A stretch of DNA of 40,790 nt, taken from the NCBI GenBank assembly GCA_035559535.1, contig DATMBG010000037.1, forward strand, positions 196,475 through 237,264, in the 5' to 3' direction. Both the position numbers and the translations under genes were made by a program. This stretch comes from Candidatus Limnocylindrales bacterium (GTDB lineage Bacteria > Moduliflexota > Moduliflexia > Moduliflexales > JAUQPW01). The stretch's first letter is position 1. The number at the start of each line of letters is the position of its first letter. The notes beneath the pieces are model-generated. The model did no database searches and had not been told where the DNA came from. It worked only from the letters and a program-made list of their open reading frames with translations. This document shows, piece after piece, positions 2,026-29,441 of the stretch.

Positions 2026-2026
2026 A

Positions 2027-11981: not shown

Positions 11982-12013
11982 GGTCATACCTATTTGTAAT
12001 TAAACGAGTAGCA

Positions 12014-12137: not shown

Positions 12138-12251
12138 AACTCTTACTCCATTTGAAAGAGCCTTAACGATGAGTTATCAGGATAAAACGTAAAACATAAG
12201 ACCTGAAGGCCTCCAGAGGCGCTTTGTGTTTTATGTCTTCCGTTTTAATAT

Positions 12252-12995: not shown

Positions 12996-13012
12996 GGCCA
13001 ATAACATAACCC

Positions 13013-13080
13013 AGGAGTCAGAAGTCAGGAGTCAGAAGTCAGAAGCAGTTTTAGTTTTTGACCTCTGGCTCCTGGCTTCT
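13013..13080. repeat. 7-mer tandem repeat (AGTCAGA/G) with inverted arm
   Basis: aggagtcagaagtcaggagtcagaagtcagaag ... tttgacctctggctcctggcttct. Confidence 0.6.
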
Positions 13081-13100
13081 GTTACGTTTTACGGGACTAA

Positions 13101-14678
13101 ATGAAAAAGACACTTAACTTCTACGGTTGGATTTCTGTGGTACTCCTGATTTTTTTTCTCAATCTAAACTTTGTTCATGCCGGAGAAGCGCAACCTCCCG
13201 AAAAAAACCTCGAAGTAGGTAAAGCCCTCTATCAAAAAAATTGTGCCCAATGTCACGGGGATAATGGAGAGGGAAAGGGAGTATCAGAACCCTTCGTATT
13301 TCCAAAACCTCGAGATTTTACAGCAGGTCTTTACAAGATCCGAACCACCCCCGGTGGGCAACTTCCTTTAGATTCAGATCTGTTCCGAACCATCAGCTTC
13401 GGGATGCCGGGATCTTCCATGCCGGCCTGGCAACAACTGAGCGAAGCGGACCGCTGGCAATTGGTTCACTATATTAAAACTTTTTCTCCTAAATTTGCTT
13501 CGGAAACCGCAGAGAAAGTGGCCACAACGCCGAAACCTGCCAAACCTGATCTCGAGAAAGGACGGCAGCTCTTTCAGGATATAGAATGCTGGAAATGCCA
13601 TGGACAGGAAGGGCGAGGTGATGGTCCTTCGGCCCCGGAACTTAAGGATAACTGGGGATTCCCTATAAAACCTGCCGATCTGACAAAAAACTGGACTTTC
13701 CGAGGGGGTGGTTCGGTGGAAGATATCTATATGCGAATCATAACAGGGATCAATGGAACTCCCATGCCTTCCTTTTTGGATTCCTTTGAAAAACCAGAAG
13801 ATGCCTGGGATCTGGCCTATTATGTAAGATCTTTATCCCCTGAAAATAAACCCGAAGTTACTGTGCTCAGGGCAAAGCTTATCCCGGGTGAACTACCCAC
13901 AGAACCTGAAGACCCACGATGGAATGAGCTACCTGCTTACTACTTTCCACTTTCCGGCCAGATTACTATAGAACCCCGATTATTCACGCCTTCCCTTGAT
14001 TCTATCTTCGTAAAGGCTGTACATAATACTAAGGAAATTGCTTTCCTGGTTATGTGGAATGATAGAACCCAAGATCCTTCCCCTCCGGGTGCTATCCCAC
14101 AAACTGCATCGGCAGAAGGTCAACAAAGTCAATCTGCTTCTCAACAAGGTAACCCTTCAGCCCCTCAACCAGGAAGTCCCCAAAAATTCAGCGATGCCAT
14201 TGCTATCCAATTCCCTGTCAAGCCAGATCCCGGCGGTTTCATAAAGCCATACTTTATTATGGGCGATTCAGAAAGACCGGTCTATTTATGGACATGGAAA
14301 GCCGAATGGCAGGGTGTTAAGGAATCCAATGCCAGTGGCCCATTCAAAGAAACCCTACAAAGTCAGGAAAGCCAGACCCTTCAAGGTAAAGGTATCTATA
14401 AAAACGGTCAATGGAAGGTCCTTTTTAAGCGAGCTTTAACCACCCAGGATAAAGACCATGACTACCAATTTGAAATTGGAAAGTTTATCCCCATCGCTTT
14501 TTCTGCCTGGGACGGCTCCAATGGAGAAACCGAACTGAAAAGATCCCTCTCAACCTGGTATTATCTGTTCCTGGAAACACCCCGGCCCATTAGCCAGTAC
14601 CTTTATCCCATCACAGCCTTTCTACTTATAGCCGGAGCGGAAGTCTGGTTCTTGAAACGAAACAGCCGAAGGCAGTAA
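13101..14678 (+). CDS. Diheme cytochrome c fused to EB_dh heme-b domain with C-terminal TM anchor (alternative NxrC-like architecture)
   Basis: Signal peptide, CAQCH, CWKCH, PKPRDFT, then FSDAIAIQFP, PYFIMGD, VYLWTWKA, GIYKNGQWKVLFKRAL, IAFSAWDGSNGE and a C-terminal hydrophobic helix. Confidence 0.88.
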   Translation: MKKTLNFYGWISVVLLIFFLNLNFVHAGEAQPPEKNLEVGKALYQKNCAQCHGDNGEGKGVSEPFVFPKPRDFTAGLYKIRTTPGGQLPLDSDLFRTISFGMPGSSMPAWQQLSEADRWQLVHYIKTFSPKFASETAEKVATTPKPAKPDLEKGRQLFQDIECWKCHGQEGRGDGPSAPELKDNWGFPIKPADLTKNWTFRGGGSVEDIYMRIITGINGTPMPSFLDSFEKPEDAWDLAYYVRSLSPENKPEVTVLRAKLIPGELPTEPEDPRWNELPAYYFPLSGQITIEPRLFTPSLDSIFVKAVHNTKEIAFLVMWNDRTQDPSPPGAIPQTASAEGQQSQSASQQGNPSAPQPGSPQKFSDAIAIQFPVKPDPGGFIKPYFIMGDSERPVYLWTWKAEWQGVKESNASGPFKETLQSQESQTLQGKGIYKNGQWKVLFKRALTTQDKDHDYQFEIGKFIPIAFSAWDGSNGETELKRSLSTWYYLFLETPRPISQYLYPITAFLLIAGAEVWFLKRNSRRQ

Positions 14679-14859: not shown

Positions 14860-15630
14860 CTACAAAATCAGGTAGACACCTAGACCCACCAAACCCACTC
14901 CGACTATCCGACCGAGGATCATGCCATAGCGGCTGACTTTCTCAATGAAAATAATTAAAGTTAGAAGACCCATGGCGGTAAGGTTCATCAAACCTACCGC
15001 AAACAGGACAAGCATGAGACCCCAGCAACAACCCAGGCAGTAAGCACCATGGTATAAACCCATTCGCAAAGCACCTGCTATTCCTTCACGCCAGTGCTGA
15101 GCAATGAATCCCAGTGGAGATTGGCAATGGCGCAGGCAAGCTGTTTTGAGGGGACTAAACTGATAAAGCCCCGCCAGTATCAGCAGAATCCCCTGACCGA
15201 CCCGAATCGGTTGGAGCAAGTATCCATCGGATATTCGAGTACTCCCTGATTGCACGATCCAGATTACAAAATAGGCAATTACTCCAAAGGCCGTCCAGAT
15301 CACAAGATATCCGGCTACAAAGACCCATGTCGGTACAAAGGCCTGACCCTGAGACTTCCTTTGACGGACAAGACGGCTAAATAGCAGGATCATGGGAGCC
15401 GCTGAAGGAAACATCATAGCGACCATCATACTGAGCCACATAAACAAGAAGGCCACGAAAGTGGGCCAGTTTCTGCTCATCGAATCGGGAGAACCAGCTG
15501 ATCCGATCATGGTTATTCCGCCTGGCATCTTCATCGAAACGGTTATAAGCCAGGCCAGGAGGGTAGATATGGCCAGGACCCCTCCGGTGATGAGCTGCTC
15601 GCGGGGCAGAGAAGTGAAACGTTGATTCAT
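14860..15630 (-). CDS. DUF2182 family predicted metal-binding membrane protein
   Basis: MMVAMMFPSAAPM, YQFSPLKTACLRHCQSP, YCLGCCWGLMLVLFAVGLMNL. Confidence 0.92.
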   Translation of the reverse strand: MNQRFTSLPREQLITGGVLAISTLLAWLITVSMKMPGGITMIGSAGSPDSMSRNWPTFVAFLFMWLSMMVAMMFPSAAPMILLFSRLVRQRKSQGQAFVPTWVFVAGYLVIWTAFGVIAYFVIWIVQSGSTRISDGYLLQPIRVGQGILLILAGLYQFSPLKTACLRHCQSPLGFIAQHWREGIAGALRMGLYHGAYCLGCCWGLMLVLFAVGLMNLTAMGLLTLIIFIEKVSRYGMILGRIVGVGLVGLGVYLIL

Positions 15631-15645
15631 AAAGAATATTCGTTT

Positions 15646-16290
15646 CTATTTTTGATTAGTCCATTCTACAAGGGCATAAATCCCGTTTTGACCCGGGTAT
15701 TCGAACTGAATGTTACTGTAGTTGATACTCATGATCTCGGTTGTGGCGGCATCTCCATCATTCCAGATTAATCCGCCCCGCGGAAGAACGATATGAACTT
15801 CATGTTCTTCACCCGTGACCGGATTTTTGAGGGGAGTTAAGCGGACTTCCAGTATACCCGGAATTCGAAAATAGGACCGACGGCCCTCGACCTTCATTTC
15901 AATGGGTTTGAGGATAGGTCCTTCCGCCACCTCAATAGTAGGGGCAAGAACTTCCCAGGGCATCCCTCCGGCTCTACCCGATAGAATTCTTTTGATCGAT
16001 TTGACCTGTTCGGGACTGGCAGATTCATCGATAAACAGGACCGATCGTCCATGACCTTCATGAAGGGCTCCTGGATACTTCACGGCAAATACGGTACGGA
16101 CACCCGCAAGATCCACTTCGCCGTAGTGTCCTTCAATGACCTCTATACCCACAATGGTGTGGCAAGAACCATGATCTGGGAAACCTCCAAAATTGCAGTT
16201 ACAACCAGGGTCACAGTTGCAGGTTTCAATCCAATGCCCTTTGAGCCAATACGGAGTTCGAGTAGTTGGATTGGGTGTTGCTTGAGTCAT
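15646..16290 (-). CDS. DUF1326 domain protein
   Basis: ETCNCDPGCNCNFGG.P.HGSC, GHYGEVDLAG, IDESASPEQ...ILSGRAGG. Typical partner of DUF2182. Confidence 0.9.
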   Translation of the reverse strand: MTQATPNPTTRTPYWLKGHWIETCNCDPGCNCNFGGFPDHGSCHTIVGIEVIEGHYGEVDLAGVRTVFAVKYPGALHEGHGRSVLFIDESASPEQVKSIKRILSGRAGGMPWEVLAPTIEVAEGPILKPIEMKVEGRRSYFRIPGILEVRLTPLKNPVTGEEHEVHIVLPRGGLIWNDGDAATTEIMSINYSNIQFEYPGQNGIYALVEWTNQK

Positions 16291-16328: not shown

Positions 16329-17714
16329 TTAACTTCCATTATCCCTACGCAAATGCTTTAAAATAAGATCATAAACCTCTGTTGCATCTATGGATCTTTT
16401 ATCCAGTAAGTCTCCTTGTTGGGTGATAAAAAGAGGACCTTCAACCGGTGAATCTGTTACGCGGCCATGAGATCCCTTTACGAGGGAAGGATCCAGAGGT
16501 ATTACGTCCATCAGGTATCGAAATCCGAGTCGTTTCTTGAGAAGGATCCACCCTACCTTTAACGGAAGGAACTTAATGGCAGGGTCGGTAAATAACTCTA
16601 CAGGGTCATAACCGGGTTTACGGTGAATATCCACGGTTCTGGCAAAATCGGGTGCCCGTCCATCATCGAGCCAGTAATAATAGGTAAACCAGGCATCTGA
16701 TTGGGAGATAGCGATGAGATCTCCGGCTCTGGGATGGGTCAGATGGTACTTTACTTTTCCGGCTTCATCAAGAATCTGCTCGATCCCTTCAGTTTCTTCT
16801 AGAATCTTTCGTACCTGTTGGGTTTTAGATGGATCGTTGATATAAATATGGGCAATTTGATGATCAGCGACGGCAAAGGCGGTGCTCGCTCCGGCATCTA
16901 AAAGTTCTAATCCCCGCTCCTCACGGATGGCGATCAAACCCCTCTCCCGGAAGATTCGATTAAGTGAAATGGCCCTGGAAACATCTGTAATGCCGTATTC
17001 CGAAAGTACAATAATCTGAGCTTCATGGGCCTCATAGTACTCGATTAAATCCCCACAAACTGCATCAATTTCCTGAAGATCCTTGTGAATGGATGGATGG
17101 TGAGGACCAAGGCGTTGCAGGTTGTAGTCGAGGTGCGGCAGGTAGATCAAGGTCAGGGTTGGATGATATTTTTGATCGATCCGTTTAGCCGATTCGGCAA
17201 TCCACCGGCTGGAGCGAATGGAAGTCTGGGGACCCCAAAAGTCAAATAAAGGAAAGGTACCTAATTGATTTTGTAGCTCGATCCTTAGTTCAGCGGGACG
17301 TGTATAGATATCCGGGATCTTCCGTCCGTCTGCCAGATAGATAGGTCGGGGAGTCACGGCGTAATCTACCGAGGAATACATGTTATACCACCAGAAAAGA
17401 TTAGCACAGGTAAAGGTGGGATCGAGGGTACGAGCTATCTCCCAAACCTTCGGTGCCTGAACCAGTTTGTTGGATTGGCGCCAAAACTTGATTTCACATT
17501 CATCGCGAAAATACCAGCCGTTTCCGACAATGCCGTGTTTATCGGGATACTTTCCGGTTAGATAGGTGGCCTGGGCCGTACACGTTACGGCAGGGGTAAC
17601 AGCTCCTATGGTTGCTATCTTTCCTCGCTGTGCCCAGGTACTCAGGCAGGGAGTGTGAGGTCCTAGCAGCTCGGAAGTTAATCCGACAACATTCATTACG
17701 ACGGTCTTATGCAT
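16329..17714 (-). CDS. eboF: Alkaline phosphatase superfamily nucleotide pyrophosphatase, EboF
   Basis: PAVTCTAQATYLTG, HGIVGNGWY, YLPHLDY, VADHQIAH, PDFARTVDIHRKPGYDPVELF, KGSHG. Start at MHKTVV. Confidence 0.92.
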   Translation of the reverse strand: MHKTVVMNVVGLTSELLGPHTPCLSTWAQRGKIATIGAVTPAVTCTAQATYLTGKYPDKHGIVGNGWYFRDECEIKFWRQSNKLVQAPKVWEIARTLDPTFTCANLFWWYNMYSSVDYAVTPRPIYLADGRKIPDIYTRPAELRIELQNQLGTFPLFDFWGPQTSIRSSRWIAESAKRIDQKYHPTLTLIYLPHLDYNLQRLGPHHPSIHKDLQEIDAVCGDLIEYYEAHEAQIIVLSEYGITDVSRAISLNRIFRERGLIAIREERGLELLDAGASTAFAVADHQIAHIYINDPSKTQQVRKILEETEGIEQILDEAGKVKYHLTHPRAGDLIAISQSDAWFTYYYWLDDGRAPDFARTVDIHRKPGYDPVELFTDPAIKFLPLKVGWILLKKRLGFRYLMDVIPLDPSLVKGSHGRVTDSPVEGPLFITQQGDLLDKRSIDATEVYDLILKHLRRDNGS

Positions 17715-17782
17715 CTTAGGGTTAAAGGGTAAAATCCAAAATCTGAGGTCATAGGGATAAAATGACCTTAGACTCCGGACTT

Positions 17783-18664
17783 TTACGTTACATATAAAAA
17801 CCTGGCAATCTGCACGGCAGGAATCCACAGAGCTAGAACCAGTAAACCCAGGAGGAAGCCGGCAAATCCGGCTGTAAAGTAGGCGTCGAGTAGAATAATA
17901 GAGAGGACGAGGGTTTTAACGGCCGTTTTAATGTTGTCAGGGGTTGCTTCCAGCAGAACCCCTACTAACGGTCGAAGGGTTACGACAGTAAAGAGGATTA
18001 AGAAGATAAGAGGCGTAAAACCGGTCAGAATCCCTTTTAACCATATGTAAAAGCAACCCAGGATAACCAGTATAACCCCTATGGTAGCCAGTTGTTGCCC
18101 TCGCTGCTCTCCCCCTATTACCTCTCCCTTGCTGAGCGTCGTTATGGAGATGACATAGAGCATAACCAGGAAAGCAATGGTAATTTTAGAGGAAATTTGC
18201 CCGGGAATTATACTCATTCCTAATAAAACATTTAGAAAACGACAGCTACCCATATTAAGAGAGCCTAAAATCGGAATGTTTTTGGTAATCCCATCATAGG
18301 AGAGAATAGCACCCGTCAGAAGCACTGCAAAAACAAAACTTTGGATTCCTACAAATCCTGCAGAAAGAATCCCCAGGAGGATGGAGCCAATACCTATAAC
18401 CACAGCCGTACGAAGGCTGATTTGTCCAGAAGGAAGAGGGCGTTGGGGACGCTCTTTCAAGTCTACTTCGTAATCGAAACAGTCATTGAAGACAATTCCT
18501 GCCGTATAAAGAAAAGAGCTTGAAAGAAGGAGAAAGATCAGGTATTTGATCTGTCCTGGATGGAACTGTGTCGCTGCGAAGTATCCGGCAAAGATATCCG
18601 CCATAGCAGTGAAAACATTGGGGATCCGCATGAGTTGAAGATAAGGTTTCACAGTCTTTAACAT
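17783..18664 (-). CDS. eboC: UbiA-family prenyltransferase, EboC
   Basis: LMRIPNVFTAMADIFAG, NDCFDYEVDLKERPQRPLPSG, MGSCRFLNVLLG, IILLDA. Confidence 0.9.
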   Translation of the reverse strand: MLKTVKPYLQLMRIPNVFTAMADIFAGYFAATQFHPGQIKYLIFLLLSSSFLYTAGIVFNDCFDYEVDLKERPQRPLPSGQISLRTAVVIGIGSILLGILSAGFVGIQSFVFAVLLTGAILSYDGITKNIPILGSLNMGSCRFLNVLLGMSIIPGQISSKITIAFLVMLYVISITTLSKGEVIGGEQRGQQLATIGVILVILGCFYIWLKGILTGFTPLIFLILFTVVTLRPLVGVLLEATPDNIKTAVKTLVLSIILLDAYFTAGFAGFLLGLLVLALWIPAVQIARFLYVT

Positions 18665-18762
18665 AAAGTTTCCAAAACCCTGGTATCCTCTGTAGTTAAA
18701 AAACGAGAAAATACCAGGAAGGTGCCCAGGACATCAAAAAGATTTTTCAAGAACCTCTCAGA

Positions 18763-20091
18763 CTAGCTTCTGCAACGGAAACCCTTTTCTTCCAGAACCC
18801 TCCGAACATACTCTAATTCGTTTGCTATATTTGTACTAAGATCGCCAGTGCCTGTACCTGCTTTATGGGCGATCTGCTCGACCCACGTATAGGTTTCGAT
18901 AATGAGGGGAACTTCTTCCCCAAGGATTTTGGAGGAAGGGTTATCCCCAGGGTCTGGGAGAAAAATAAACTCCCTTAGAAAGTTTTTAAGTTCTTGAATA
19001 GTGGTCTGAATACCGGCCTGAGGGTTTTCAAATACGGGTACATGATAGTGGGTTCTCAGTTGTGTGACCCCTCGTCGAGCGAGTTCATTCTTTCCCTCTG
19101 GAGTAAAAAGATAAGGCAAATCCAGAGAAAAAATAACCGGTTTCCTTTCTGCATTAATACCTACCACCTGATGCAAAAACCTGGAGTTCATAAAGTATTT
19201 TTCAATGACCTCCATGTCTTCGACCTTCTTTAAGGGGTTATCAACTTGAATGGCATTGGAGACTTGTACCTTAAAAATTTTAATCCTGGATTGTTGAAGA
19301 AACTGAACAGATTGGATTAAATCCTCATATTGCACCAGTTGATGGCAGGTATCGAAGGTAACTCCCAGGAATTGGTGGATCACATTCTTAGCTTCTTCGA
19401 GACGTTTGGAATCCTTGGAGAAATCAGGTTCCTGGTTCGATCTTTGTCCGGCCAGAAATTCAGCTCCAACCCGATCCACGTAGTTTGTGAAAAACTCCCT
19501 GACTTCCGGTATGCGTTCATAGGTCAGGCCCGGTTCCGGTTCCATTCCGATTGCACATCGTTTTCCAGTTTTACGCTCTGTTTCATACGCGTGTAAAACA
19601 CACCGGGTCATATTGACGGCTATTTGGGAATGGATCTGATCTTTGTTGGTTTCTGTGAGATAGGTTTTGAGAATACCCCCGGGAACACTAAGAGAAACAA
19701 AGGTTTCATCTTCCGGAGCCAGAAAGGCTAAAATGTCGATACATGCCTTGGTAAAGGTGACCCGTTCTTCCCCCTCATGCCAGTTGGGCAGGTAAACCCT
19801 TTCCTTGACGTAACCTTCATGAAAAGTTAAAGGAACAAAGGCGTTGAGGGTAATTAAAGCCAGATTGTGTTGGAAGAGAAAATCTCGAAGTTCCTTTAAA
19901 ATTCGGTCACTACCGGCCAGTTCGTCTACGATTTTCTGGGATAACCTCAATTCGATATAAAATTTATCGTCTCCGAAAACCCTTTTCTTAATTTCCGGAA
20001 CTTTATTTTTGAGGACATCCCACATTCCATCTAGAGTTTCATAGGGAAAAGCATTCAGGGCATAGCCGAGTCGGCAGGTTCTTTGATGCAT
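18763..20091 (-). CDS. eboE: Xylose-isomerase-like TIM barrel metabolite traffic protein, EboE (divergent)
   Basis: TLNAF..FH...VKERVYLPNW, MEPEPG, FDTCH..V.YED, KVQVS, RFLHQV, RTHYHVPVF, IETYTW. Confidence 0.82.
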   Translation of the reverse strand: MHQRTCRLGYALNAFPYETLDGMWDVLKNKVPEIKKRVFGDDKFYIELRLSQKIVDELAGSDRILKELRDFLFQHNLALITLNAFVPLTFHEGYVKERVYLPNWHEGEERVTFTKACIDILAFLAPEDETFVSLSVPGGILKTYLTETNKDQIHSQIAVNMTRCVLHAYETERKTGKRCAIGMEPEPGLTYERIPEVREFFTNYVDRVGAEFLAGQRSNQEPDFSKDSKRLEEAKNVIHQFLGVTFDTCHQLVQYEDLIQSVQFLQQSRIKIFKVQVSNAIQVDNPLKKVEDMEVIEKYFMNSRFLHQVVGINAERKPVIFSLDLPYLFTPEGKNELARRGVTQLRTHYHVPVFENPQAGIQTTIQELKNFLREFIFLPDPGDNPSSKILGEEVPLIIETYTWVEQIAHKAGTGTGDLSTNIANELEYVRRVLEEKGFRCRS

Positions 20092-20200
20092 GTGCAGGAA
20101 TCTGGAAGCATAGGAATATAAGAAGAGGAAAGTAAGGGTTATCAGCCGATAATCCTTCTATTATATTCCGCACTCTCATATTCCGTATAGGGTTCCTGAA

Positions 20201-21109
20201 TTAGTCTTCTGTGGAAGGTTCTGTCTGGCCTGTCTGTCCTCGAAGAACAGAATTTCCTGCAAATAAAGTCTGCTGGTCAATGTTTTGAGGTACTAACCAG
20301 TCGGATTCTTTGATCTGTCCACTTTGACCATACGCTTCCAGGGCATTGGCATAGCAAATTTTATGTACATCTTTGGGTTCAATCCCACTCTCCAGCATGA
20401 GGCGGGCGACTTTAGGTACCGATAAAGGATCTGAATATCCCCAATCTGCACTGGAATCCACAATAATACGCTCACTGCCGTATTTACGAGCAATTTCCAC
20501 CATTCGGGCTTTACCCATTTTGGTTTTAGGATAGATGGTAAATGCCGCCCAAAACCCCCGTTCGAGAACCTCCTCAACGGTTTCTTCGTTATTATGATCG
20601 ATCACCACTTTCCTGGGATCAAGACCATGTTCCAGGGCTATTTCCATACTTCGCAGGGTACCTTGTTTTTTATCCCGATGGGGGGTATGGACCATGACGG
20701 GTAAATCCAATTCTCTGGCTAACTCCAATTGGGCTCGATAGTATTTCTCTTCCATGGGAGTTTGATCATCAAAGCCAATTTCACCTATTGCAATGACCCG
20801 CTCCTTGCAGGCAAAACCGGGTATGATTTCCAGTACTTCCTCGGCCAGGCGTTCATTATTAGCTTCTTTGGCATTGAGCCCGATGGCACAGTAATGCTGA
20901 ATGCCGTATTGGGATGCACGAAATCTTTCCCAGCCGATCAAACTGGAGAAATAATCGATAAAAGTACCTACGTTCGTTCGAGGCTGACCGAGCCAAAATG
21001 CAGGTTCTATCACCGCAACAACACCGGCTTGAGCCATCCGGACATAGTCATCGGTAGTCCTGGAGGTACAATGAATATGAGGATCAATGAATTTAAGTTC
21101 ATGTGCCAT
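20201..21109 (-). CDS. eboB: TatD-family hydrolase, EboB
   Basis: IDPHIHCTSRTTDDY, EPAFWLGQPR, GEIGFD, VHTPHRDK, IDHNNEET, DSSADWG.SDPL. Confidence 0.92.
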   Translation of the reverse strand: MAHELKFIDPHIHCTSRTTDDYVRMAQAGVVAVIEPAFWLGQPRTNVGTFIDYFSSLIGWERFRASQYGIQHYCAIGLNAKEANNERLAEEVLEIIPGFACKERVIAIGEIGFDDQTPMEEKYYRAQLELARELDLPVMVHTPHRDKKQGTLRSMEIALEHGLDPRKVVIDHNNEETVEEVLERGFWAAFTIYPKTKMGKARMVEIARKYGSERIIVDSSADWGYSDPLSVPKVARLMLESGIEPKDVHKICYANALEAYGQSGQIKESDWLVPQNIDQQTLFAGNSVLRGQTGQTEPSTED

Positions 21110-21944
21110 AATAGAGCTCCTTTAATGTTTCCCAGGTTGCACCCGGCGTCATGGGGGCAATCCTGTTTAATTGATCTAAATATTCTGAATAAGAAGGTAA
21201 ACGGGCATTGCGGCGTAGAAGTAGGTGGATGGCATCTCGGGTATGGCCGTGGGTTATCAAAAAGTAGTCGTAAATAGTTTTCCAATGGGATTCTTCTAGA
21301 TGACCCCCTATTGCCCTAAATAATTCATAATGGACTACCCGTTTGGCTGCAATTCGTTCCCGCATATAATCGATAAGCATTTGGGCCAGGCGAGGATTGG
21401 CCCTTTCATCTAAACCCTGAATGGGCCATAAGGGACTTTCGATGAATAACGCCTTGAGAACCATTTGATTAAAGGCAGGCTCCCGAAGACCGGTTCGTGT
21501 ATAAGGATTAAAATGGGCCAGGGACTCGAATACGGGTTTTATATTGGTACGAAGGGATTCGGTGGCAATGTCGTGGAGGGCATCAGAGCCTTTTAAGTAA
21601 GGTAAACTGTAATTTACAGCCCAACGTTCTTCAGCATCGGCAGTTATGAGGAGTTTCTGTAGTAAAGATATAAATTCTTTATCCAATACCTGTTCTGCAT
21701 AAAGCAATAATACCACACGAACTAGATCCAGAATACGCCAGTGATCGGGAATAATAAACCGATTTGCCTCCGTCAAGGTAAGGCGAGATTTTGGATAACG
21801 CCGGGAAGCCAGAGCAAACATACGGATAAACTGTGAGGGGTTTTCCAGGGTAATTGACGCTATATCCCGTGACCATTGAGCTTGACCCTTGGCATCCAGT
21901 AAGGACATCAGCCCCGTTTTGAACTTGTTTAATATCTCGGTCAT
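21099..21944 (-). CDS. eboA: EboA domain protein
   Basis: LRTNI..VFESLA..NPY, FNQMVLKALF, GLDERANPRLAQMLIDY..ER.AA.R.V. First gene of the ebo operon. Confidence 0.88.
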   Translation of the reverse strand: MTEILNKFKTGLMSLLDAKGQAQWSRDIASITLENPSQFIRMFALASRRYPKSRLTLTEANRFIIPDHWRILDLVRVVLLLYAEQVLDKEFISLLQKLLITADAEERWAVNYSLPYLKGSDALHDIATESLRTNIKPVFESLAHFNPYTRTGLREPAFNQMVLKALFIESPLWPIQGLDERANPRLAQMLIDYMRERIAAKRVVHYELFRAIGGHLEESHWKTIYDYFLITHGHTRDAIHLLLRRNARLPSYSEYLDQLNRIAPMTPGATWETLKELYYGT

Positions 21945-22074: not shown

Positions 22075-23403
22075 TTAGTGTTCGTGATCTCCATGCCCAT
22101 GCTGTCCGCCAGATTCTTTATGACTACTGTGCGTGCCGGGTTCCTGTTTTGAGGTCTCTTGAGAATCCAGAGTCATCAGGTAGGCTGTGATAGCCGTAGC
22201 TTCTTCGTTAGAGAGGCGAAACCCTGGATGTCGGGCACCTGGATGGGGTTTGTATCCGGTTGGATAAGTCTGGATAGCCGTAGGATTCAGCAGGTAGTGG
22301 GTTAACCAGCTTTCATCGGGAACAAATTCTCTGATTCCTAAAAGGGGAGGTCCATTGGGTACTATATCCGGTGGAAATCCTCCGATCCTATGGCATCCGG
22401 TGCAATTTAAATTACCTATAAGCATCCGACCTTTCTCTGCCGTCGCTTTAGGGAACCGGGCTTTTGCCAGACTATAGCCATCGGTGGCTTCAGGCCCTAA
22501 ACTGAAAATATAATCCCTAAGGGCTGCAATTTGTTTCCATCTATTCCCCTCCAGGATATTTTCCGGTCCGGACTTTTCCTCCGGGAAATAGGTCGGCATT
22601 TTAGTACCGGGTTGAATCTTTTGAGGATCCAAAAGCCAGCGAACAACCCAATCTGGGTTGAGACGTTGCCGGGCTAGGGAGAGGTCAGGCGCCCATTCCT
22701 CGGGGCGGCCTTCCGGCTTTTTATCACCCTGCGGGTGGCATTTGAAACAGGCTAGATACTCCGGGCCGGCTAAACGTGCTCCGGCTTCTATACTCTCCTC
22801 CGTTGGATAACCGTTAAACTTAAGTTCTTTAGGAAGTGGAGAAGCCTTGGGATCTTTAAGCGTCATAAGATACTCGGTAATTGCCAGGGCTTCCTCATCT
22901 GAAAGCCTGAAGTCCGGCATTCTTTGTTGAATACCCGGACGCAAAGGATAGGGTTGCTTGAGAAAGGAAAATAACCAGGAGGCCTGGACCTTATCACCTT
23001 CAAAATAAAGCTCAGGAAAGTTATGGATATGACCGGTATGCCCATGCCTTGCCTCTACGAGATGGCATCCGGCACAATGTAACTGATCCACCAACTCTTT
23101 ACCCCGGACCTGAAGATTTGTAAGACCCCGGGTTGAGCTGTGGGCCTGTTCTTCAGTCTTATGGGGATGCCCTTCGTGAAGTTCCCGGGAGGAAGTCATA
23201 GGTTGTGGCTCGGTGGGTATTTCCTGCAGATGCCCGACTTCACCTTGATGTTCTTGGTGGGAAGAGGTTGGTTGTTGCGGCTGAAGTGGTGATCCCTGTT
23301 GAGGGGGGGTAGAATGAGGATGTTCCTCATCGGCCAAAAGTAACGATAAAAATCCCCAAATGAAAAAAGAAATCCCCAGGAGAATAAAAGACATTCGTTT
23401 CAT
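22075..23403 (-). CDS. Exported triheme cytochrome c with His-rich N- and C-terminal segments
   Basis: Signal peptide; CAGCH, CFKCH, CTGCH; RMPDF and KMPTY distal Met motifs; C-terminus QHGHGDHEH. Confidence 0.85.
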   Translation of the reverse strand: MKRMSFILLGISFFIWGFLSLLLADEEHPHSTPPQQGSPLQPQQPTSSHQEHQGEVGHLQEIPTEPQPMTSSRELHEGHPHKTEEQAHSSTRGLTNLQVRGKELVDQLHCAGCHLVEARHGHTGHIHNFPELYFEGDKVQASWLFSFLKQPYPLRPGIQQRMPDFRLSDEEALAITEYLMTLKDPKASPLPKELKFNGYPTEESIEAGARLAGPEYLACFKCHPQGDKKPEGRPEEWAPDLSLARQRLNPDWVVRWLLDPQKIQPGTKMPTYFPEEKSGPENILEGNRWKQIAALRDYIFSLGPEATDGYSLAKARFPKATAEKGRMLIGNLNCTGCHRIGGFPPDIVPNGPPLLGIREFVPDESWLTHYLLNPTAIQTYPTGYKPHPGARHPGFRLSNEEATAITAYLMTLDSQETSKQEPGTHSSHKESGGQHGHGDHEH

Positions 23404-23657
23404 AGGATTTTCTTTCTCTTTTATATAAGATAAGGAACGATAACCTTAAAATTGCAAATCAAATCTGGAAATTCCCTATCTATCAGAATTTTTCGAATTA
23501 AATGGATGTTACGATGTATGTTATGTTAGGGTGGTACTTACCTGTGAAGGCAAACCTTTCTAAGGTTTGCTTTTTAAATGGTAAGATTCACCACAGTTTT
23601 GACAAATTGGACTTGCGAAAGTTCCGATAAAATTTCTTTTGCAGTTCCCTGTATTTT

Positions 23658-24593
23658 TTACTTTGTTGGAGGGAAAGGAGGATAATAGGGAACCCCATAT
23701 TTGGCCATAATAGACTGAATCGTTCCGTTTTGGGTTAAAAGGGTCAGGGCTGCGTTGATAGCTTCTTCCAGATCTTTGTTAGTCTTATTCACACCCATCA
23801 CGACATTCCATCGAAGTTCTGGTTCTGGAACATAGCCTTCGGGAACTTTAATAGGCGCATCGGGATGTTGTTTAAGATACCAGCCGACTGCAGCGGCTGT
23901 GACGACTGCCGCTTGAATTTCCTTGTTGGCCATAGCCTCTATAATATCTTCTTGGGTCACATAAGGGGTTACGGTAAAACCCTTTTTATGGGTAAGGATA
24001 TAATGGGCCCACGAACCGGGTTCAATGCCTATCTTCAAATTTTTATCGAGGTCATCGATACTTTTTATCCCTTGAGCTTCTTTAGGAATCACCAATACAT
24101 TGCCGGTGCCATAGTAAGGCTTGCTTGTAAAGAAACGTCCCCGAGAGTTTTCTTCCTCATCTTCAGGTTGAATAACGCCCATCAAGAAGTCACATTCTGC
24201 GTAATCTCGAGGACGATAAGCCCGAAGATATTCGACTCTTATATTGATCCCCAGAATTTTCCCTACCTCCTTTCCAATCTCCAGTTCATAACCCGGCATG
24301 TCCAGATCCCGGCTGGAATAAGGTAAACTATTGGGACTCGCACAGAGATAAAAGGTTCGTTTCTGGCGGGTTTCTTTAGGGAGAGTTTCAGATTGAGAGG
24401 CAGGTAGCTGAGGTTGAGCCGGTTGAGCTTTTTCTACAACTTGAATGACCGGAGGATGAGGCAGCAGGAGTTCTTTAAAGGAGGAAGTTTCTATGGCACT
24501 TAAGAGCGAAGGGAACAAGGCCCAGGACAAAAAGCATCCTAAAAGGACACTCCCTATAGAAGGGAGTTTTTGCCTGATATCAGGGTATTGCAT
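23658..24593 (-). CDS. MxaJ/XoxJ-like periplasmic substrate-binding protein
   Basis: LCASPNSLPYS, GYELEI, CDFLMGV, TSKPYY, IMAKYGVP. Adjacent to a PQQ dehydrogenase. Confidence 0.82.
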   Translation of the reverse strand: MQYPDIRQKLPSIGSVLLGCFLSWALFPSLLSAIETSSFKELLLPHPPVIQVVEKAQPAQPQLPASQSETLPKETRQKRTFYLCASPNSLPYSSRDLDMPGYELEIGKEVGKILGINIRVEYLRAYRPRDYAECDFLMGVIQPEDEEENSRGRFFTSKPYYGTGNVLVIPKEAQGIKSIDDLDKNLKIGIEPGSWAHYILTHKKGFTVTPYVTQEDIIEAMANKEIQAAVVTAAAVGWYLKQHPDAPIKVPEGYVPEPELRWNVVMGVNKTNKDLEEAINAALTLLTQNGTIQSIMAKYGVPYYPPFPPTK

Positions 24594-24666
24594 AATTTAA
24601 CTTTCGTTTATTCCTTATAAAGGCCATAGGGTAACTTCTCTGAGTTGCCCTTCTTATCCTGTTTCT

Positions 24667-24784
24667 TATACCAATTTTTGGTTGAAACTGACCCTTAACT
24701 TTCCTGTTCCCTCTAAGCTTGTTGAAGGAAGAAAAGGAGAGGAACAAGATCGTTTAGGGCATATTTCAGTTTGAAACTGGTATT
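24667..24784. repeat. Imperfect inverted-repeat element (TACCAATTT ... AAACTGGTA ends)
   Basis: taccaatttttggttgaaactgacccttaac versus gtttagggcatatttcagtttgaaactggta. Confidence 0.4.
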
Positions 24785-24985
24785 ACGTGAAGTCATGTTA
24801 ATTACACCCCGTTCGTCCGGAGCAGGTTGAAGGGCGCAGGGGGTACAGGGAGGGGTTTCCCTGGCGGACATTTCAAAACAGAAAGGATGTTAACTGCAAA
24901 ACCCCTCTTTGCCGTTTAAAAAAGAAGAGGGAATAGAGTATAGAACTCCACCCCCTTTTGAGGACTACCCGGGTTAGACGTTAAA

Positions 24986-26686
24986 TTATCTTTTTAAACC
25001 ATAGATAAATAAGGTTGCACTGTTTTTCCAGTTTTCGGTCTCCGGCCAGAGTTGTGGATAGAGGCCGACCACTTTAGAACCCCATCCCGAGGGGATGGCC
25101 ACATACTGGATTCCTTTAACGGTATAGGTAACAGGTCCTCCGCGATGTCCCGAACCGGCGTTGAAGCTCCATAAGGTCTCTCCGGTGTCCTGATCCAGTG
25201 CTTTAGCGTTCCCTTCTGCATCCCCATAGAAAATGAGGCCTCCAGCAGTAGCCAGGAAGCTGCTGAGGGTAGGATATTTCTCTTTCACACGCCACTTGTT
25301 TTTACCGGTTAGAGGATCCCAGGCGTCTATATGTCCACCTGTTTCACCCTTTACTGCAGGTCTGGCAATCAGGTCTGCACTAAAAAAGGTTTGGGCCTGG
25401 GGTACTGTGATAGGGCTTTCTTTACGAACGGTAGTTTCCTGACACCACTCAATTCCGTTGGTAAACCAGATTCCCGTCTTGGGATTATAGGCCCCGGCGT
25501 TCCAGGATCTACCTCCTCCCGTAGAGGGACAGTTAAAGAATTTCTCTCCGAGTTTCGGAGCCCGGACGTTCAGGAGTCTTCCATTCTTATCTACACCACT
25601 AAACCAGTCCAGGTTGTCGATCATTGCAAAGCCACTGATATACTTTCCATTAGTTCGATCTAAAACATTCACCCAGCCTCCCTTATTGGGATGGACCAAA
25701 AGTTTTCTTCCATCTTTTGTATCAATCAAAACACTTTCCCAGGTGCTATCGAAATCTAAGGGATCGTGGGGATTTTCCTGGAAATACCACTTCAATTTCC
25801 CGGTATCGGGGTCCAGGGCCAGAATACTACTTGTGTAGAGGTTATCCCCGGGTCGGGCTTCCCCCCAGTCATAATCCGGGGCCGGGTTTGCGGTTCCCCA
25901 ATAAACCAGATTCAATTCAGGATCATAAGACCCTGTCATCCAGCCCCCTCCACCACCCGTCTTCCAGGAGTCACCTCCCCAGGTCTCACTGCCGGGTTCG
26001 TTCTTGCTTTTATCGGGGATGGTGTAGAACCGCCAGGCCTCTTTTCCATCTTTGAGATAGTAAGCTGCAATAAATCCCCGAATCGGCAGCTCTCCCCCGG
26101 TGGTCCCCACGATTACCTTGTCCTTTACAACCAGAGGGGCTCCGGTAATGTTATTCCCGTTTTTGGTCCAGTCATCAACCTGAGTCTTCCATACTTCTTT
26201 ACCATCCTCCATACTCAGCGCAACCAGATAACCATCAATGGTACCCATAAAAATTTTGCCGTCTCCAATGGCTACACCCCGATTGTAAGGAATAAAGAAG
26301 GTGTTGATTTCCTTGGGATATTTGTAGAAATAACTCCAGATGACCTTACAGGTGGAAGCATCCAAAGCGTAGACCCGATTCCAGGAGGTGGAGAGATAAA
26401 GAATCCCTTCATAGACAATGGGTGTTGCTTCTAAACCTTCATCGATGGCATTTCCTCCGGGTTGAAAGGCACAAACAGGAACCAGATCCTTAATGTTAGC
26501 TTTATTGATTTGATCCAGTTCACTATAACGCCAGGCAGCATAATTACCATGATAATGTAACCAATGATCTTTACCAGGGTTGAGAAGCTCTTGAGAGGTT
26601 GGTTTTCCCTCGGCACCAAAACTTATGGGTTCTAAAACTAAAACTCCGGCTATTAAATAGGCCATCAATTTGAGAACTTTATTCAC
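24986..26686 (-). CDS. PQQ-dependent dehydrogenase, methanol/ethanol family, with lanthanide-type D-x-D motif
   Basis: Signal peptide, RYSELDQIN, EATPIV, NRG, GGE, SYDPELNLVYWGTANPAP, WYFQENPHDPLDFD, Trp-docking repeats, PVTYTVKGIQYVAIPSGWG. RBS AAGGAGG with GTG start. Confidence 0.93.
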   Translation of the reverse strand: MNKVLKLMAYLIAGVLVLEPISFGAEGKPTSQELLNPGKDHWLHYHGNYAAWRYSELDQINKANIKDLVPVCAFQPGGNAIDEGLEATPIVYEGILYLSTSWNRVYALDASTCKVIWSYFYKYPKEINTFFIPYNRGVAIGDGKIFMGTIDGYLVALSMEDGKEVWKTQVDDWTKNGNNITGAPLVVKDKVIVGTTGGELPIRGFIAAYYLKDGKEAWRFYTIPDKSKNEPGSETWGGDSWKTGGGGGWMTGSYDPELNLVYWGTANPAPDYDWGEARPGDNLYTSSILALDPDTGKLKWYFQENPHDPLDFDSTWESVLIDTKDGRKLLVHPNKGGWVNVLDRTNGKYISGFAMIDNLDWFSGVDKNGRLLNVRAPKLGEKFFNCPSTGGGRSWNAGAYNPKTGIWFTNGIEWCQETTVRKESPITVPQAQTFFSADLIARPAVKGETGGHIDAWDPLTGKNKWRVKEKYPTLSSFLATAGGLIFYGDAEGNAKALDQDTGETLWSFNAGSGHRGGPVTYTVKGIQYVAIPSGWGSKVVGLYPQLWPETENWKNSATLFIYGLKR

Positions 26687-26922: not shown

Positions 26923-27633
26923 TTATTTAGGAGTATAAAGTGTACCCGTTTGGGCATCTAAAAATAAAATCTCATCGGCCACCTGCCTTGCGAACTCCTC
27001 ATCCAGAGTTACGATAAAAGCAGTGAGGGCCATCTTTTTGTTTATTTTCCTTATCAATTTTCCTATGTTTCTCGCAGCTCTTGCATCTAAACCCAGGGTT
27101 GGCTCTTCATACAAAAGGATTTTAGGTTCATAGGCCAGGGCCCGGGCCACCTCTACCCGTTTTCTTGCTTCCTGTTCCAAATCGGAAGGAAACTTGATTG
27201 CATATTCAGAAGACAATCTGACTTTTCTCATCAAATCTCCGACCCTCCTGGCGATTTCCTCCTCGCTGAAAAGTCGGTCTATCCTTAACTTTAGAGGCAA
27301 GGCGATATTCACGCCTACGGTCAGATTATTGAAGAGTAAGGAACGTTGGGAGACCAGACCAAAATTCTCCAGAAACTTATGCCAGTCTGCATCATCTTTA
27401 AGATCCCGGGTATCTATTCCCAGGACCCGGACTCTTCCCGAGTCTGGAAGGGAAGCCCCATTAATTAAGTTCAATAAAAGCTCCTTTCCACTATGGGGAG
27501 GTCCGACAATCGCAAGACTCTTACCGTGCTGGACCTGGAAACTGATATCTTTTAGAATCTCTCTACCTTCAAAAGATTTGGTTACATTTTGCAATTCTAT
27601 TTCGATAATGGGGGCTTTTTTAAAACCGAACAT
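26923..27633 (-). CDS. MlaF/Mkl-like ABC ATP-binding protein with degenerate catalytic motifs
   Basis: GPPHSGKE (Walker A), LFNNLTVGVNIALPL, LEQEARKRV (signature), ILLYEEPTLGLD, VTLD (H-loop). Confidence 0.8.
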   Translation of the reverse strand: MFGFKKAPIIEIELQNVTKSFEGREILKDISFQVQHGKSLAIVGPPHSGKELLLNLINGASLPDSGRVRVLGIDTRDLKDDADWHKFLENFGLVSQRSLLFNNLTVGVNIALPLKLRIDRLFSEEEIARRVGDLMRKVRLSSEYAIKFPSDLEQEARKRVEVARALAYEPKILLYEEPTLGLDARAARNIGKLIRKINKKMALTAFIVTLDEEFARQVADEILFLDAQTGTLYTPK

Positions 27634-27850
27634 GCTTTTATTTTATATATAAATAGATAAGGTTGTCAATTTAAATTTTATAAAGATTACTCTACATAAC
27701 TACCTTTAAATGAAGCACTTACACAAGATTACCTCTACAAAATCTATTTCCTTTCAACTTGACCCGAGTACCTCTTTGGATGTATACTTACTTTTACGTA
27801 ATTGTAATCTTAACCCAAGTTAAGAAAGTTCTATGATAGGAGAAGCTAAA

Positions 27851-28678
27851 ATGGTAAAAACCGAAGAGAAGTATCAGCGTCTGAAACAAATTTTAAAAGA
27901 CATGGAGGGGGTTTTGGTTGCTTTCTCGGCCGGGGTGGATAGTACTTTTGTACTTAAAGTTGCACATGATGTCTTAGGAGAGAAGGTTCTCGCGGTTACG
28001 GCGCGTTCTGTTACTTATCCCCTTGCAGAATTAGAAGAAGCCAAGCAATTAGCCTCTTCTTTAGGGGTGAGGCATCTTATTGTTGAGTCTAAGGAGATCA
28101 ATGTTCCCGGATTTAGTAACAACCCGCCCAATCGTTGCTATTATTGCAAAACCGAGTTATATGATATACTGACCGAGATAGCCCGTCGGGAAAATATCCC
28201 CTATGTTGTGGATGGAACCAATTACGATGATATCCAGGATTATCGTCCGGGCATGAAGGCGACAGCGGAACATGGTGTAAGAAGCCCTTTAAAGGAGGCC
28301 GGACTTACCAAGGAAGAAATCCGATATCTTTCCAGAGAATTGGGTCTTCCAACCTGGGATAAGCCTTCATTTGCCTGTTTATCCTCTCGATTTCCTTACG
28401 GGGACCAGATTACAGTTGAAAAGTTACAGAGGGTGGAGGCTGCCGAAAACTTTTTGCGGCAGTTTAAGTTTAAGCAATTACGGGTTCGTCATCATGATAA
28501 AATTGCACGTATTGAATTAACCAAAGAAGATATGGTTCGAGTGGTTACAACTGATATCGGCGATAAGATCGTGGCTAAATTTAAAGAGTTAGGTTATGCG
28601 TATGTTACTTTAGATCTTCAAGGATATCGGACCGGAAGTATGAATGAGGTCCTGTTGAAATTAGAAATGGTCAACTAA
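27851..28678 (+). CDS. larE: ATP-dependent sulfur transferase LarE (nickel-pincer nucleotide biosynthesis)
   Basis: VAFSAGVDS, NPPNRCYYCK, DYRPG, WDKPSFACLSSRFPYG, LRVRHH, YVTLDLQGYRTGSMN. AGGAG before ATG 27851; alternative start 27833. Confidence 0.93.
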   Translation: MVKTEEKYQRLKQILKDMEGVLVAFSAGVDSTFVLKVAHDVLGEKVLAVTARSVTYPLAELEEAKQLASSLGVRHLIVESKEINVPGFSNNPPNRCYYCKTELYDILTEIARRENIPYVVDGTNYDDIQDYRPGMKATAEHGVRSPLKEAGLTKEEIRYLSRELGLPTWDKPSFACLSSRFPYGDQITVEKLQRVEAAENFLRQFKFKQLRVRHHDKIARIELTKEDMVRVVTTDIGDKIVAKFKELGYAYVTLDLQGYRTGSMNEVLLKLEMVN

Positions 28679-28679
28679 T

Positions 28680-29441
28680 ATGGATATCGAAAAGTTAAGA
28701 GCGCTACTTGAAGGAGTCCGGGAGGGTTCTTTAAGTATTGATAGAGCTTTGGAGAGGTTAAAAAGCCTCCCTTATGAAGATCTCGGTTTTGCTAAGGTTG
28801 ACCACCATCGACATCTCCGTAAGGGGACTCCCGAGGTTGTCTTCTGTCAGGGAAAAACGGTCGAACAGGTCGTCAAGATTGTAGAAAGACTGATCAAGAC
28901 TGGAGAATCCAATATCCTGGCGACTCGAGCTTCCGAGGAGGTCTATCAGGGAATCAAACAGGTTATCGGAACGGTAGAGTACCACTCTATGGCCAGAGTG
29001 GTTGTTGTCTGCCCTAAACCGACGAATCCTCAGGTAGGATGTATCGCCCTTATAAGTGCGGGAACGGCAGACCTTCCGGTCGCAGAAGAAGCCGCTGTAG
29101 TAGCCGAAACGCTCGGAAACCGGGTGGAAAGGATTTACGATGTGGGGGTAGCCGGTTTACATCGTCTGCTGGATAATCTTAAACGAATTGTAGAAGCCAA
29201 TGTCATTATCGTTGTGGCCGGGATGGAAGGAGCTCTTCCCAGTGTTGTGGGGGGTTTAGTCGATAAGCCGATCATTGCAGTTCCCACCAGTGTGGGATAT
29301 GGAGCCAGTTTCCATGGGCTGTCAGCTTTGCTGACCATGCTTAATAGCTGTGCACCAGGCATATCAGTGGTTAATATCGATAACGGATTTGGTGCTGCTT
29401 ATCAGGCGAGTTTAATTAATAAAATGTGTGCTAAGTCGTGA
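28680..29441 (+). CDS. larB: Nickel-pincer cofactor biosynthesis carboxylase LarB
   Basis: FAKVDHHR, PEVVFCQGK, AGTADLPVAEEA, DVGVAGLHRL, VAGMEGALPS, PTSVGYG, VVNIDNGFGA. Confidence 0.95.
   Translation: MDIEKLRALLEGVREGSLSIDRALERLKSLPYEDLGFAKVDHHRHLRKGTPEVVFCQGKTVEQVVKIVERLIKTGESNILATRASEEVYQGIKQVIGTVEYHSMARVVVVCPKPTNPQVGCIALISAGTADLPVAEEAAVVAETLGNRVERIYDVGVAGLHRLLDNLKRIVEANVIIVVAGMEGALPSVVGGLVDKPIIAVPTSVGYGASFHGLSALLTMLNSCAPGISVVNIDNGFGAAYQASLINKMCAKS

Follow-up and report, generated by a model that had tools for sequence, protein, structure and literature searches.

A Cys-Cys-less PQQ-type dehydrogenase beside a triheme cytochrome: a lineage-specific locus within a widespread, uncharacterised quinoprotein clade

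Genes of the locus

This study concerns three neighbouring genes in a 40,790-nucleotide (nt) stretch of contig DATMBG010000037.1, referred to below as the window; its source genome is labelled G000. They encode a dehydrogenase of the pyrroloquinoline quinone (PQQ) type (Q), a MoxJ/XoxJ-like protein (J) and a cytochrome c with three haem sites. We find that the dehydrogenase is one member of a widespread, uncharacterised clade, in which aromatic residues stand in place of the vicinal Cys-Cys and the D-x-D motif of the metal site is kept, and that the locus is a lineage-specific variant within this clade. An earlier note on this DNA had proposed the order dehydrogenase, J-like protein and triheme cytochrome; this order is confirmed, with three open reading frames (ORFs) at the same coordinates, all on the minus strand, and exactly three CxxCH motifs in the cytochrome. 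Hydrophobic, signal-like N-termini are present on all three proteins, whose lengths are given in amino acids (aa).

24986..26686, minus strand: eight-bladed PQQ-type dehydrogenase, predicted periplasmic, 566 aa, GTG start (ORF and profiles)
24928..24956, minus strand: terminator-like hairpin, a 12-pair stem followed by a T-run, inside the dehydrogenase-J spacer, first base 30 nt past the dehydrogenase stop codon
23658..24593, minus strand: J, divergent MoxJ/XoxJ-like protein of the solute-binding protein (SBP) fold, predicted periplasmic, 311 aa (weak family profiles)
22075..23403, minus strand: triheme class-I cytochrome c, probably membrane-anchored, 442 aa (profiles and motifs)

The spacers measure 392 nt between the dehydrogenase and J, 254 nt between J and the cytochrome, and 130 nt between the cytochrome and eboA, which belongs to a downstream ebo cluster. 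The hairpin has a folding energy of -18.3 kcal/mol (z -2.1), and since 9 of 200 shuffled sequences fold equally well, it is suggestive only. Promoter-like and terminator-like sites in the scanned region were not more numerous than expected from shuffled sequence, and an Rfam scan of the whole window at gathering thresholds gave no match. Due to the two long spacers and the hairpin behind the dehydrogenase gene, a single operon is not demonstrated.

J scores above the cut-off of the Pfam model SBP_bac_3 (39 bits against 26.4). Its best NCBIfam matches are the MoxJ families, both below their cut-offs (TIGR03871, 73 against 212.15 bits; TIGR03870, 46.9 against 258.1 bits), which makes it a weak but specific relative of these proteins. 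The signal-like N-terminus is accompanied by a Pro/Gln-rich linker. MxaJ is described as a PQQ-insertion chaperone on the basis of cryo-EM and reconstitution (PMC12276312), and by analogy J may load PQQ into the dehydrogenase.

A clade of dehydrogenases without the vicinal disulfide

The dehydrogenase reaches 519.2 bits on TIGR03075 (PQQ-dependent dehydrogenase, methanol/ethanol family; cut-off 480.05) and 239 bits on the Pfam model PQQ (PF01011). TIGR04528 (acido-empty-quinoprotein group A), the second-best NCBIfam match, gives 387 bits against a cut-off of 650, and TIGR03074, the model for membrane-bound PQQ glucose dehydrogenase, gives 162 bits against 833; the E-values of the profile matches at the locus lie far beyond chance. 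By sequence, the best solved relative is PedH (6zcv; HMMER, 347 bits, E 1.4e-102), while XoxF structures give merely 268-296 bits. In the HMMER alignment to PedH, T129-F130-F131-I132-P-Y-N-R-G faces P-C-C-D-V-I-N-R-G, the vicinal Cys-Cys being replaced by Phe130-Phe131. GGELPIRG, ANPAP and PHDPLDFDS stand opposite GGEFGVVG, GNPAP and PHDGWDFDG, placing the metal site at Glu199, Asn267, the catalytic Asp311 and the extra Asp313 two residues further on. This alignment confirms the D-x-D motif, the Glu and Asn ligands and the replacement of Cys-Cys by TFFIPYNRG, as the earlier note had read them. Further pocket residues are Arg136, Trp249 and Lys335, and there is a conserved pair Cys386/Cys415.

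An AlphaFold2 model built from a 15-row alignment (pLDDT 73.3, pTM 0.80) forms an eight-bladed propeller, whose top 29 Foldseek matches are all PQQ-dependent alcohol or methanol dehydrogenase structures (TM 0.72-0.85). PedH is again the best match (TM 0.85, 34% identity), and identity to solved members is at most 35%.

A protein search with the dehydrogenase returned 7999 significant relatives among 8000 scored candidates. Four close relatives share 95, 77, 80 and 75% identity with it, and the remainder of the 120 listed homologues share 50-56%. Residues were counted in the dehydrogenase plus its best 120 listed homologues of the 7999 (121 sequences). Of the homologues, 118 span the Cys-Cys site, and Cys-Cys is found in none of them; position 131 is Tyr in 96/121 and Phe in 23/121, thus aromatic in 119/121. 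Asn267, Asp308, Asp311, Trp249, Lys335 and Trp395-Asn396 are each present in 121/121, Asp313 in 120/121 and Arg136 in 119/121, while position 199 is Asp in 98/121 and Glu in 23/121. With 0/118 for Cys-Cys and 120/121 for the extra Asp, the supposed uncharacterised clade that lacks the disulfide and keeps D-x-D is well founded. The accompanying idea of a more open active site is not, since the aromatic residues at the Cys-Cys position (Phe-Phe here, Tyr or Phe at 131 in nearly all relatives) are bulkier, which argues for a space that is filled rather than opened.

Named sources among the 120 listed homologues are Acidobacteriota (Bryobacterales, Terriglobia) and Nitrospinota, and the clade consists mainly of Acidobacteriota and soil metagenome sequences. 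A quick IQ-TREE tree was calculated from 56 rows, comprising the dehydrogenase, 12 paralogues of the same genome, the L108 sequence and a sample of 42 homologues out of the 120 (P0001, P0002, P0004, then one in three starting with P0005). In this tree 45 of the 56 rows form one Cys-Cys-less clade (SH-aLRT 100). The dehydrogenase falls into a subclade with P0001, P0002, L108 and P0004 (support 100), and the sister group of this subclade includes the paralogue on contig C58. From the genome's own XoxF and PedH-like paralogues, which stand for XoxF and ExaF/PedH in the tree, the clade is separate.

We found no curated NCBIfam model that names the clade. Nine of ten clade relatives tested pass the cut-off of the general model TIGR03075 alone, and P0059 scores 476.6 against 480.05. 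An equation of the clade with TIGR04528 was rejected, because the dehydrogenase and 10/10 relatives (348-449 bits) remain under 650 bits. When the most divergent Cys-Cys-less paralogue was searched against the PDB, PedH was again the top match.

In XoxF1 (D320A) and ExaF (D319S), experiments show that La binding and function depend on the extra Asp, whereas solved Ca-binding enzymes have Ala, Ser or Thr there (preprint 10.1101/2020.02.25.964783). From this one residue, lanthanide use by the window dehydrogenase is predicted, and the clade is, judged by its sequences, probably lanthanide-dependent. A PQQ dehydrogenase that uses Ca2+ or another divalent metal despite its D-x-D is the alternative. 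Sufficiency of the motif outside XoxF/ExaF/PedH is not established, Asp replaces the Glu ligand in most of the clade, indicating a remodelled metal site, and no dedicated lanthanide uptake or binding gene was recognised in the genome. Against this stand the near-invariance of Asp313, the fact that the best match by both sequence and fold is the lanthanide-dependent PedH, and a true XoxF in the genome, because of which the organism presumably acquires lanthanides. We therefore regard use of a divalent metal as unlikely, though not negligible.

Gene contexts of the clade

Contexts were collected for 80 genome and 80 metagenome loci, L029-L107 and L108-L187 among them. The dehydrogenase together with at least one downstream ORF was called in 63 genome and 39 metagenome loci, which gives 102 countable loci. 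No dehydrogenase ORF was called in 13/80 genome and 35/80 metagenome loci, and a further 4 and 6, respectively, ended at the dehydrogenase; in high-GC contigs the ORF caller lost the dehydrogenase or small neighbours to longer spurious frames on the opposite strand. As 58 loci were thereby dropped, the context counts are lower bounds.

A same-strand cytochrome with a C(x)xGYCH motif lies within two ORFs after the dehydrogenase in 48/102 loci (33/63 and 15/39), for example at L029:8578-9357, L040:8642-9622, L123:2354-2785 and L109:1706-2290. In Acidobacteriota-type loci, 38 of 40 downstream cytochromes have a seven-letter CX4C[HK] site followed by CXXCH; those with CX4CH plus CXXCH are 229-364 aa long, with two cytochrome c Pfam domains in 4/4 tested. 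On soil contigs the downstream cytochrome has 129-144 aa and a CX3CH site and is usually followed by J. A J homologue is found downstream of the dehydrogenase in 29/102 loci (3/63 genome, 26/39 metagenome). The clade-typical small cytochromes match the PedF-like partners of other G000 paralogues at 26-39% identity and do not match the triheme protein. Among the papers listed, we found none linking CX3CH or CX4CH haem motifs to PQQ enzymes, and lower-ranked papers could hold such a link. The pairing of a Cys-Cys-less dehydrogenase with a cytochrome of atypical haem motif is the more interesting lead, and it lies at the level of the clade.

J followed by a three-CxxCH cytochrome occurs elsewhere only in L028, the sister genome's locus (98% identical), where the two genes lie on the same strand with the same 254-nt spacing as in the window. 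The F-J-triheme arrangement is thus seen in this genus only; elsewhere a PedF-like cytochrome of atypical motif follows, with or without J. The clade-typical GYCH cytochrome was not found in the whole of G000, where a similar motif occurs in one 70-aa frame on contig C26, and because it is missing, some replacement acceptor is needed. A small-cytochrome pseudogene in the dehydrogenase-J spacer was also considered and rejected, as three-frame translation revealed no remnant and tblastn gave no match there.

In locus L109, a 455-aa polytopic membrane protein without Pfam match (L109:3964-5331, minus strand) lies near the 75%-identical dehydrogenase and appears NRAMP-like by eye. For Acidobacteria, a 2024 paper reports that NRAMP genes occur near XoxF3 (PMC10875860).

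The triheme cytochrome and its family

The cytochrome consists of three class-I cytochrome c domains with haem sites C110/C113/H114 (CAGCH 110), C219/C222/H223 (CFKCH 219) and C334/C337/H338 (CTGCH 334). TIGR03872 and TIGR04494 (cytochrome cL / XoxG / PedF) are absent among its matches, and the description of the adjoining cytochrome as unusual is borne out. A family search returned 315 significant members among 3199 candidates (E down to 1e-104), with NC10/Methylomirabilis, Binatia, Rokubacteria and 'Deltaproteobacteria' among the named members. In a 26-row alignment, four CxxCH domains are present in 22 rows; domains one to three can be aligned across the whole family, and their haem sites as well as Met162 and Met269 are invariant. 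The window cytochrome and its three closest relatives, which share 65-87% identity with it over the full length in the alignment and 74-90% in the BLASTP listing, have lost the fourth haem domain. These four proteins share His-rich N-terminal linkers and C-terminal tails, and carry His at position 392, where the other 22/26 have Met. The window cytochrome is therefore a truncated homologue and not itself a His/Met-ligated protein of four CxxCH domains.

Homologues were found in 39/121 Methylomirabilota genomes sampled, and a PQQ dehydrogenase adjoins the homologue in 0/5 Methylomirabilota contexts examined. Conversely, five Rokubacteria/Methylomirabilota genomes with dehydrogenase-J loci were searched for the triheme cytochrome, and none of them yielded it. 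In G000 it has a paralogue, a multihaem cytochrome c of 962 aa, encoded directly after the genes for a Rieske protein and the N-terminal and C-terminal parts of a split cytochrome b (contig C51, 238100-243865; locus L194:2105-7865). The products of this cluster make up a bc-type complex whose multihaem c subunit is a paralogue of the window cytochrome. The window cytochrome itself is best read as a respiratory-chain cytochrome that was recruited to, or merely placed beside, the dehydrogenase-J pair. A complex prediction for the dehydrogenase (residues 27-566) and the cytochrome (95-425), both given as alignments, scored 0.00 with a mark of 0.32 and is evidence neither for nor against their putative partnership.

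The three genes might accordingly be neighbours without forming one unit, the dehydrogenase and J feeding a small soluble PedF-like cytochrome or another carrier and the triheme protein being a general respiratory component. The spacers and the hairpin fit this possibility, as do the family distribution, the position of the paralogue next to Rieske and cytochrome b genes, a cluster for a bd-like oxidase, haem b proteins and cytochromes c situated 7-14 kb off in the window, and no fewer than four small partner cytochromes with one CxxCH that G000 encodes next to other paralogues. Same-strand adjacency is, however, kept in both genomes of the genus, and with the clade-typical dedicated cytochrome missing genome-wide, the triheme protein is the nearest replacement candidate. 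We consider unlinked neighbours a serious competitor of a functional unit, yet somewhat less probable than not.

Paralogues, PQQ supply and lanthanides in the host genome

G000 (5.6 Mb, 58 contigs, 95.76% complete) carries 13 PQQ dehydrogenase paralogues, 11 of which have D-x-D; among the 12 other than the window enzyme, 9 keep Cys-Cys. The true XoxF, which scores 801 bits against 4mae, the SolV enzyme, keeps Cys-Cys; its gene is followed by those for a XoxJ (MoxJ_2, 306 bits, cut-off 212) and a cytochrome of 327 aa containing two CxxCH motifs (contig C44, 68900-72752; locus L023). The assertion that such enzymes typically have a monoheme partner is thus overstated, as the XoxF of the very same genome shows. 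The remaining paralogues adjoin either one-CxxCH cytochromes of 135-180 aa or two-CxxCH cytochromes of 220-319 aa. PQQ dehydrogenase genes (E<=1e-50) are limited to 2/9 genomes of the phylum, both from the genus of the window, and for this reason the whole paralogue set looks like a lineage-specific acquisition. Another paralogue is adjoined by an aldehyde dehydrogenase and a LarA-family racemase (L022:3803-5059).

The earlier note had suggested a search for pqqA-E and lanthanide uptake genes. Neither pqqB nor pqqC was found in G000, the best pqqE-like match is a weak radical-SAM match (129.7 bits against 381), and, as said, no lanthanide uptake gene was recognised. A pqqC gene was likewise found in 0/9 genomes of the phylum and in 0/5 complete acidobacterial genomes that carry clade members; as positive control, 12/201 Acidobacteriota genomes score above the cut-off and 26/201 at E<=0.001 (G037 included). 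The sole PqqU-like TonB receptor (contig C37, 22882-24804; locus L026) reaches 484 bits against a cut-off of 1200 and is encoded between a radical SAM/SPASM gene and a PQQ dehydrogenase paralogue, with ExbB, ExbD and TonB genes downstream. From the lack of pqqB and pqqC, the weak pqqE match and this one receptor, we infer that PQQ is imported. PQQ scavenging via PqqU is documented (PMC12124388), and a 2026 preprint (10.64898/2026.07.10.737718) reports lanthanide receptors misannotated as PqqU. Since such misannotation occurs, the ligand of the receptor is ambiguous and may be PQQ or a lanthanide chelate.

The missing synthesis genes would also suit an 'empty' propeller that holds no PQQ and serves some purpose other than redox chemistry. 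The name 'acido-empty-quinoprotein' hints at such a state in certain relatives from organisms without PQQ synthesis, and TIGR04528 is indeed the second-best NCBIfam match of the dehydrogenase. But the scores of this enzyme and of 10/10 relatives lie far under the cut-off of that model, the catalytic and cofactor-pocket residues are near-invariant, cytochrome genes adjoin the dehydrogenase across the clade, and a PqqU-like importer is present. This explanation is the least probable of those considered here, and the dehydrogenase is expected to bind PQQ.

Surroundings of the locus

An ebo cluster follows the cytochrome gene; no eboD was recognised in it.

16329-21944, minus strand: ebo cluster downstream of the cytochrome
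21099-21944, minus strand: eboA
20201-21109, minus strand: TatD-like eboB
18763-20091, minus strand: eboE
17783-18664, minus strand: eboC
16329-17828, minus strand: type I phosphodiesterase (eboF-like)

The ebo genes begin on the same strand a short distance behind the cytochrome gene, and a second dehydrogenase-J locus, L110 (56% identical), also has eboA/B/E-like genes within 5 kb. The ebo cluster has been linked to the export of intermediates to the periplasm (PMC6282210), and in a 2026 preprint ebo genes are connected with the biosynthesis of thallusin. The substrate of the dehydrogenase could hence be imagined to come from the adjacent eboA-B-E-C-F pathway, as a product or intermediate in the periplasm, with the two clusters forming one larger unit. 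Yet ebo genes lie nearby in just 2/160 related loci, one of them in the sister genome, two genes on the opposite strand intervene in L110, a promoter-like site (11/12) precedes eboA, and the words PQQ, quinoprotein and cytochrome have 0 occurrences in the thallusin preprint. A link to the ebo pathway is in our view improbable, only marginally less so than an empty propeller.

The redox cluster mentioned above (8075-14678, plus strand) comprises genes for an EB_dh haem-b-like protein (340 aa), a protein resembling cytochrome bd subunit I (598 aa), two cytochromes c (335 aa and 247 aa) and a 525-aa fusion of a cytochrome c with an EB_dh domain; together they may form a terminal oxidase module of an unusual type. 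In locus L193, a homologue of the triheme cytochrome has a comparable cytochrome c plus EB_dh protein nearby. Between this cluster and the ebo genes (14860-16290, minus strand) lie a PpoB2 copper-chaperone-family protein of 256 aa and a DUF1326 protein of 214 aa.

An orphan ABC-transporter ATPase (26923-27633, minus strand) is encoded 236 nt upstream of the dehydrogenase and lacks a neighbouring permease gene; its match to the ATPase model of a 'PQQ-dependent alcohol dehydrogenase system' is weak (95.6 bits, cut-off 302). Two genes for the nickel-pincer cofactor, larE and larB, are situated at 27833-29441. At about 1900-6700 of the window, the GC content is 59-68% against a background of 41-47%. 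This part encodes a PAS-rich hybrid histidine kinase of 1362 aa (2044-6132), and the sister genome G006 lacks nearly all of it, matching it at only four places over 54-116 nt each. It was either inserted recently or is a chimera produced by assembly or binning.

Discussion

To our knowledge, all characterised cytochrome-linked PQQ methanol/ethanol dehydrogenases carry a strained Cys-Cys ring that lies on PQQ. The role of this disulfide is debated and has been seen in electron transfer to the cytochrome, in stabilisation of the semiquinone or in retention of the cofactor. A cytochrome-linked clade without Cys-Cys would permit a direct test of this role and, given its lanthanide-type ligands, would extend predicted rare-earth-dependent carbon oxidation to abundant soil lineages without PQQ synthesis.

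We propose, with a probability of about 0.55, that the window encodes a PQQ- and lanthanide-dependent dehydrogenase of the Cys-Cys-less clade, served by J as chaperone and by the triheme cytochrome as stand-in acceptor. PQQ would be taken up from outside and handed to the dehydrogenase by J. A trivalent lanthanide would be held by E199, N267, D311 and D313 next to PQQ, with an aromatic side chain replacing the disulfide ring. The enzyme would then oxidise an alcohol, a polyol or an aldehyde in the periplasm; a pointer to its substrate was not seen in the neighbourhood. In most of the clade, the acceptor would be a dedicated PedF/XoxG-like cytochrome with a CX3CH or CX4CH (..GYCH) haem site, while in this genus, which is without the dedicated protein, the triheme cytochrome would most likely stand in and pass the electrons to the membrane respiratory chain.

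Several observations weigh against this proposal. In the dehydrogenase model, pLDDT is below 50 at residues 128-133, 199-201 and 268-277, the active-site loops, and as confidence is lowest precisely there, the model is silent on active-site geometry. D-x-D is necessary in XoxF/ExaF, with sufficiency elsewhere not established, and a dedicated lanthanide gene is lacking among those recognised in the genome. J remains below both MoxJ cut-offs, the genes are set apart by long gaps with a hairpin behind the first, a PQQ dehydrogenase adjoins none of the cytochrome's homologues in the five contexts examined, and its G000 paralogue belongs to a bc-type cluster. The order dehydrogenase-J-triheme is confined to two genomes of one genus, and because of this restriction its conservation gives no independent support. 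Already in L108 (79% identity) the dehydrogenase and the J that adjoins it are followed by a second dehydrogenase copy, and in L109 (75% identity) the dehydrogenase is followed by a 194-aa CX4CH cytochrome. Finally, we found no biochemistry on any clade member in the literature.

A more far-reaching version would hold that the clade consists of lanthanide-PQQ dehydrogenases with an aromatic residue for Cys-Cys and a coevolved GYCH cytochrome, that this genus lost the latter, and that the pathway was rewired here to a bc-derived, membrane-anchored triheme cytochrome, one haem of which may be bis-His-ligated. We rate this version as doubtful, about on a par with the use of a divalent metal. If it were true, the rewired triheme protein would provide a direct electron route from periplasm to membrane, undescribed for any quinoprotein. 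The locus itself would add a case of partner replacement.

Comparison with known systems

The earlier note had presented the locus as a new system. This is not upheld, as 7999 relatives are significant, Cys-Cys-less proteins with DYD or DXD are already in print, and a 2026 preprint (10.64898/2026.07.10.737718) counts 15 clades of predicted lanthanide-type eight-bladed enzymes; the dehydrogenase is a member of a clade and not a new kind of system. The sole description of Cys-Cys-less PQQ enzymes that we found in the literature is a passage on quinoproteins of heterotrophic marine Thaumarchaeota (PMC7300363), which lack Cys-Cys yet have DYD or DXD. By this description these likewise uncharacterised proteins can be set beside the window dehydrogenase, from which they differ in being archaeal and, according to the same passage, mostly predicted to be membrane-associated.

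Among solved enzymes, PedH/ExaF (PDB 6ZCV/6ZCW) is similar in its eight-bladed propeller, the Glu, Asn and catalytic Asp ligands, the extra Asp at +2, the periplasmic location and the link to cytochrome c. The window dehydrogenase differs from it by only 34-35% identity, Phe-Phe for Cys-Cys, its placement in another clade and another neighbouring cytochrome, and by Lys335 where PedH has Arg (DRNG vs NKGG). With the XoxF-XoxJ-XoxG clusters the locus shares D-x-D and the combination of a dehydrogenase, a MoxJ-like protein and a c-type cytochrome, but J falls below the family cut-off and the cytochrome is unrelated to XoxG. J itself resembles MxaJ/XoxJ in its SBP fold, its place beside a PQQ dehydrogenase and its weak matches to TIGR03870 and TIGR03871, and differs by the extra N-terminal Pro/Gln-rich linker and the low scores. 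The four-haem cytochrome c family shares three aligned domains with the window cytochrome and includes the 962-aa paralogue after the Rieske and cytochrome b genes, whereas the window protein has no fourth domain, has His392 for Met and has gained a His-rich linker and tail. Membrane-bound PQQ glucose dehydrogenase is an eight-bladed PQQ enzyme that works without a vicinal disulfide; it has, however, an N-terminal membrane domain and reduces ubiquinone, whereas the clade of the window dehydrogenase is soluble and stands beside cytochrome genes.

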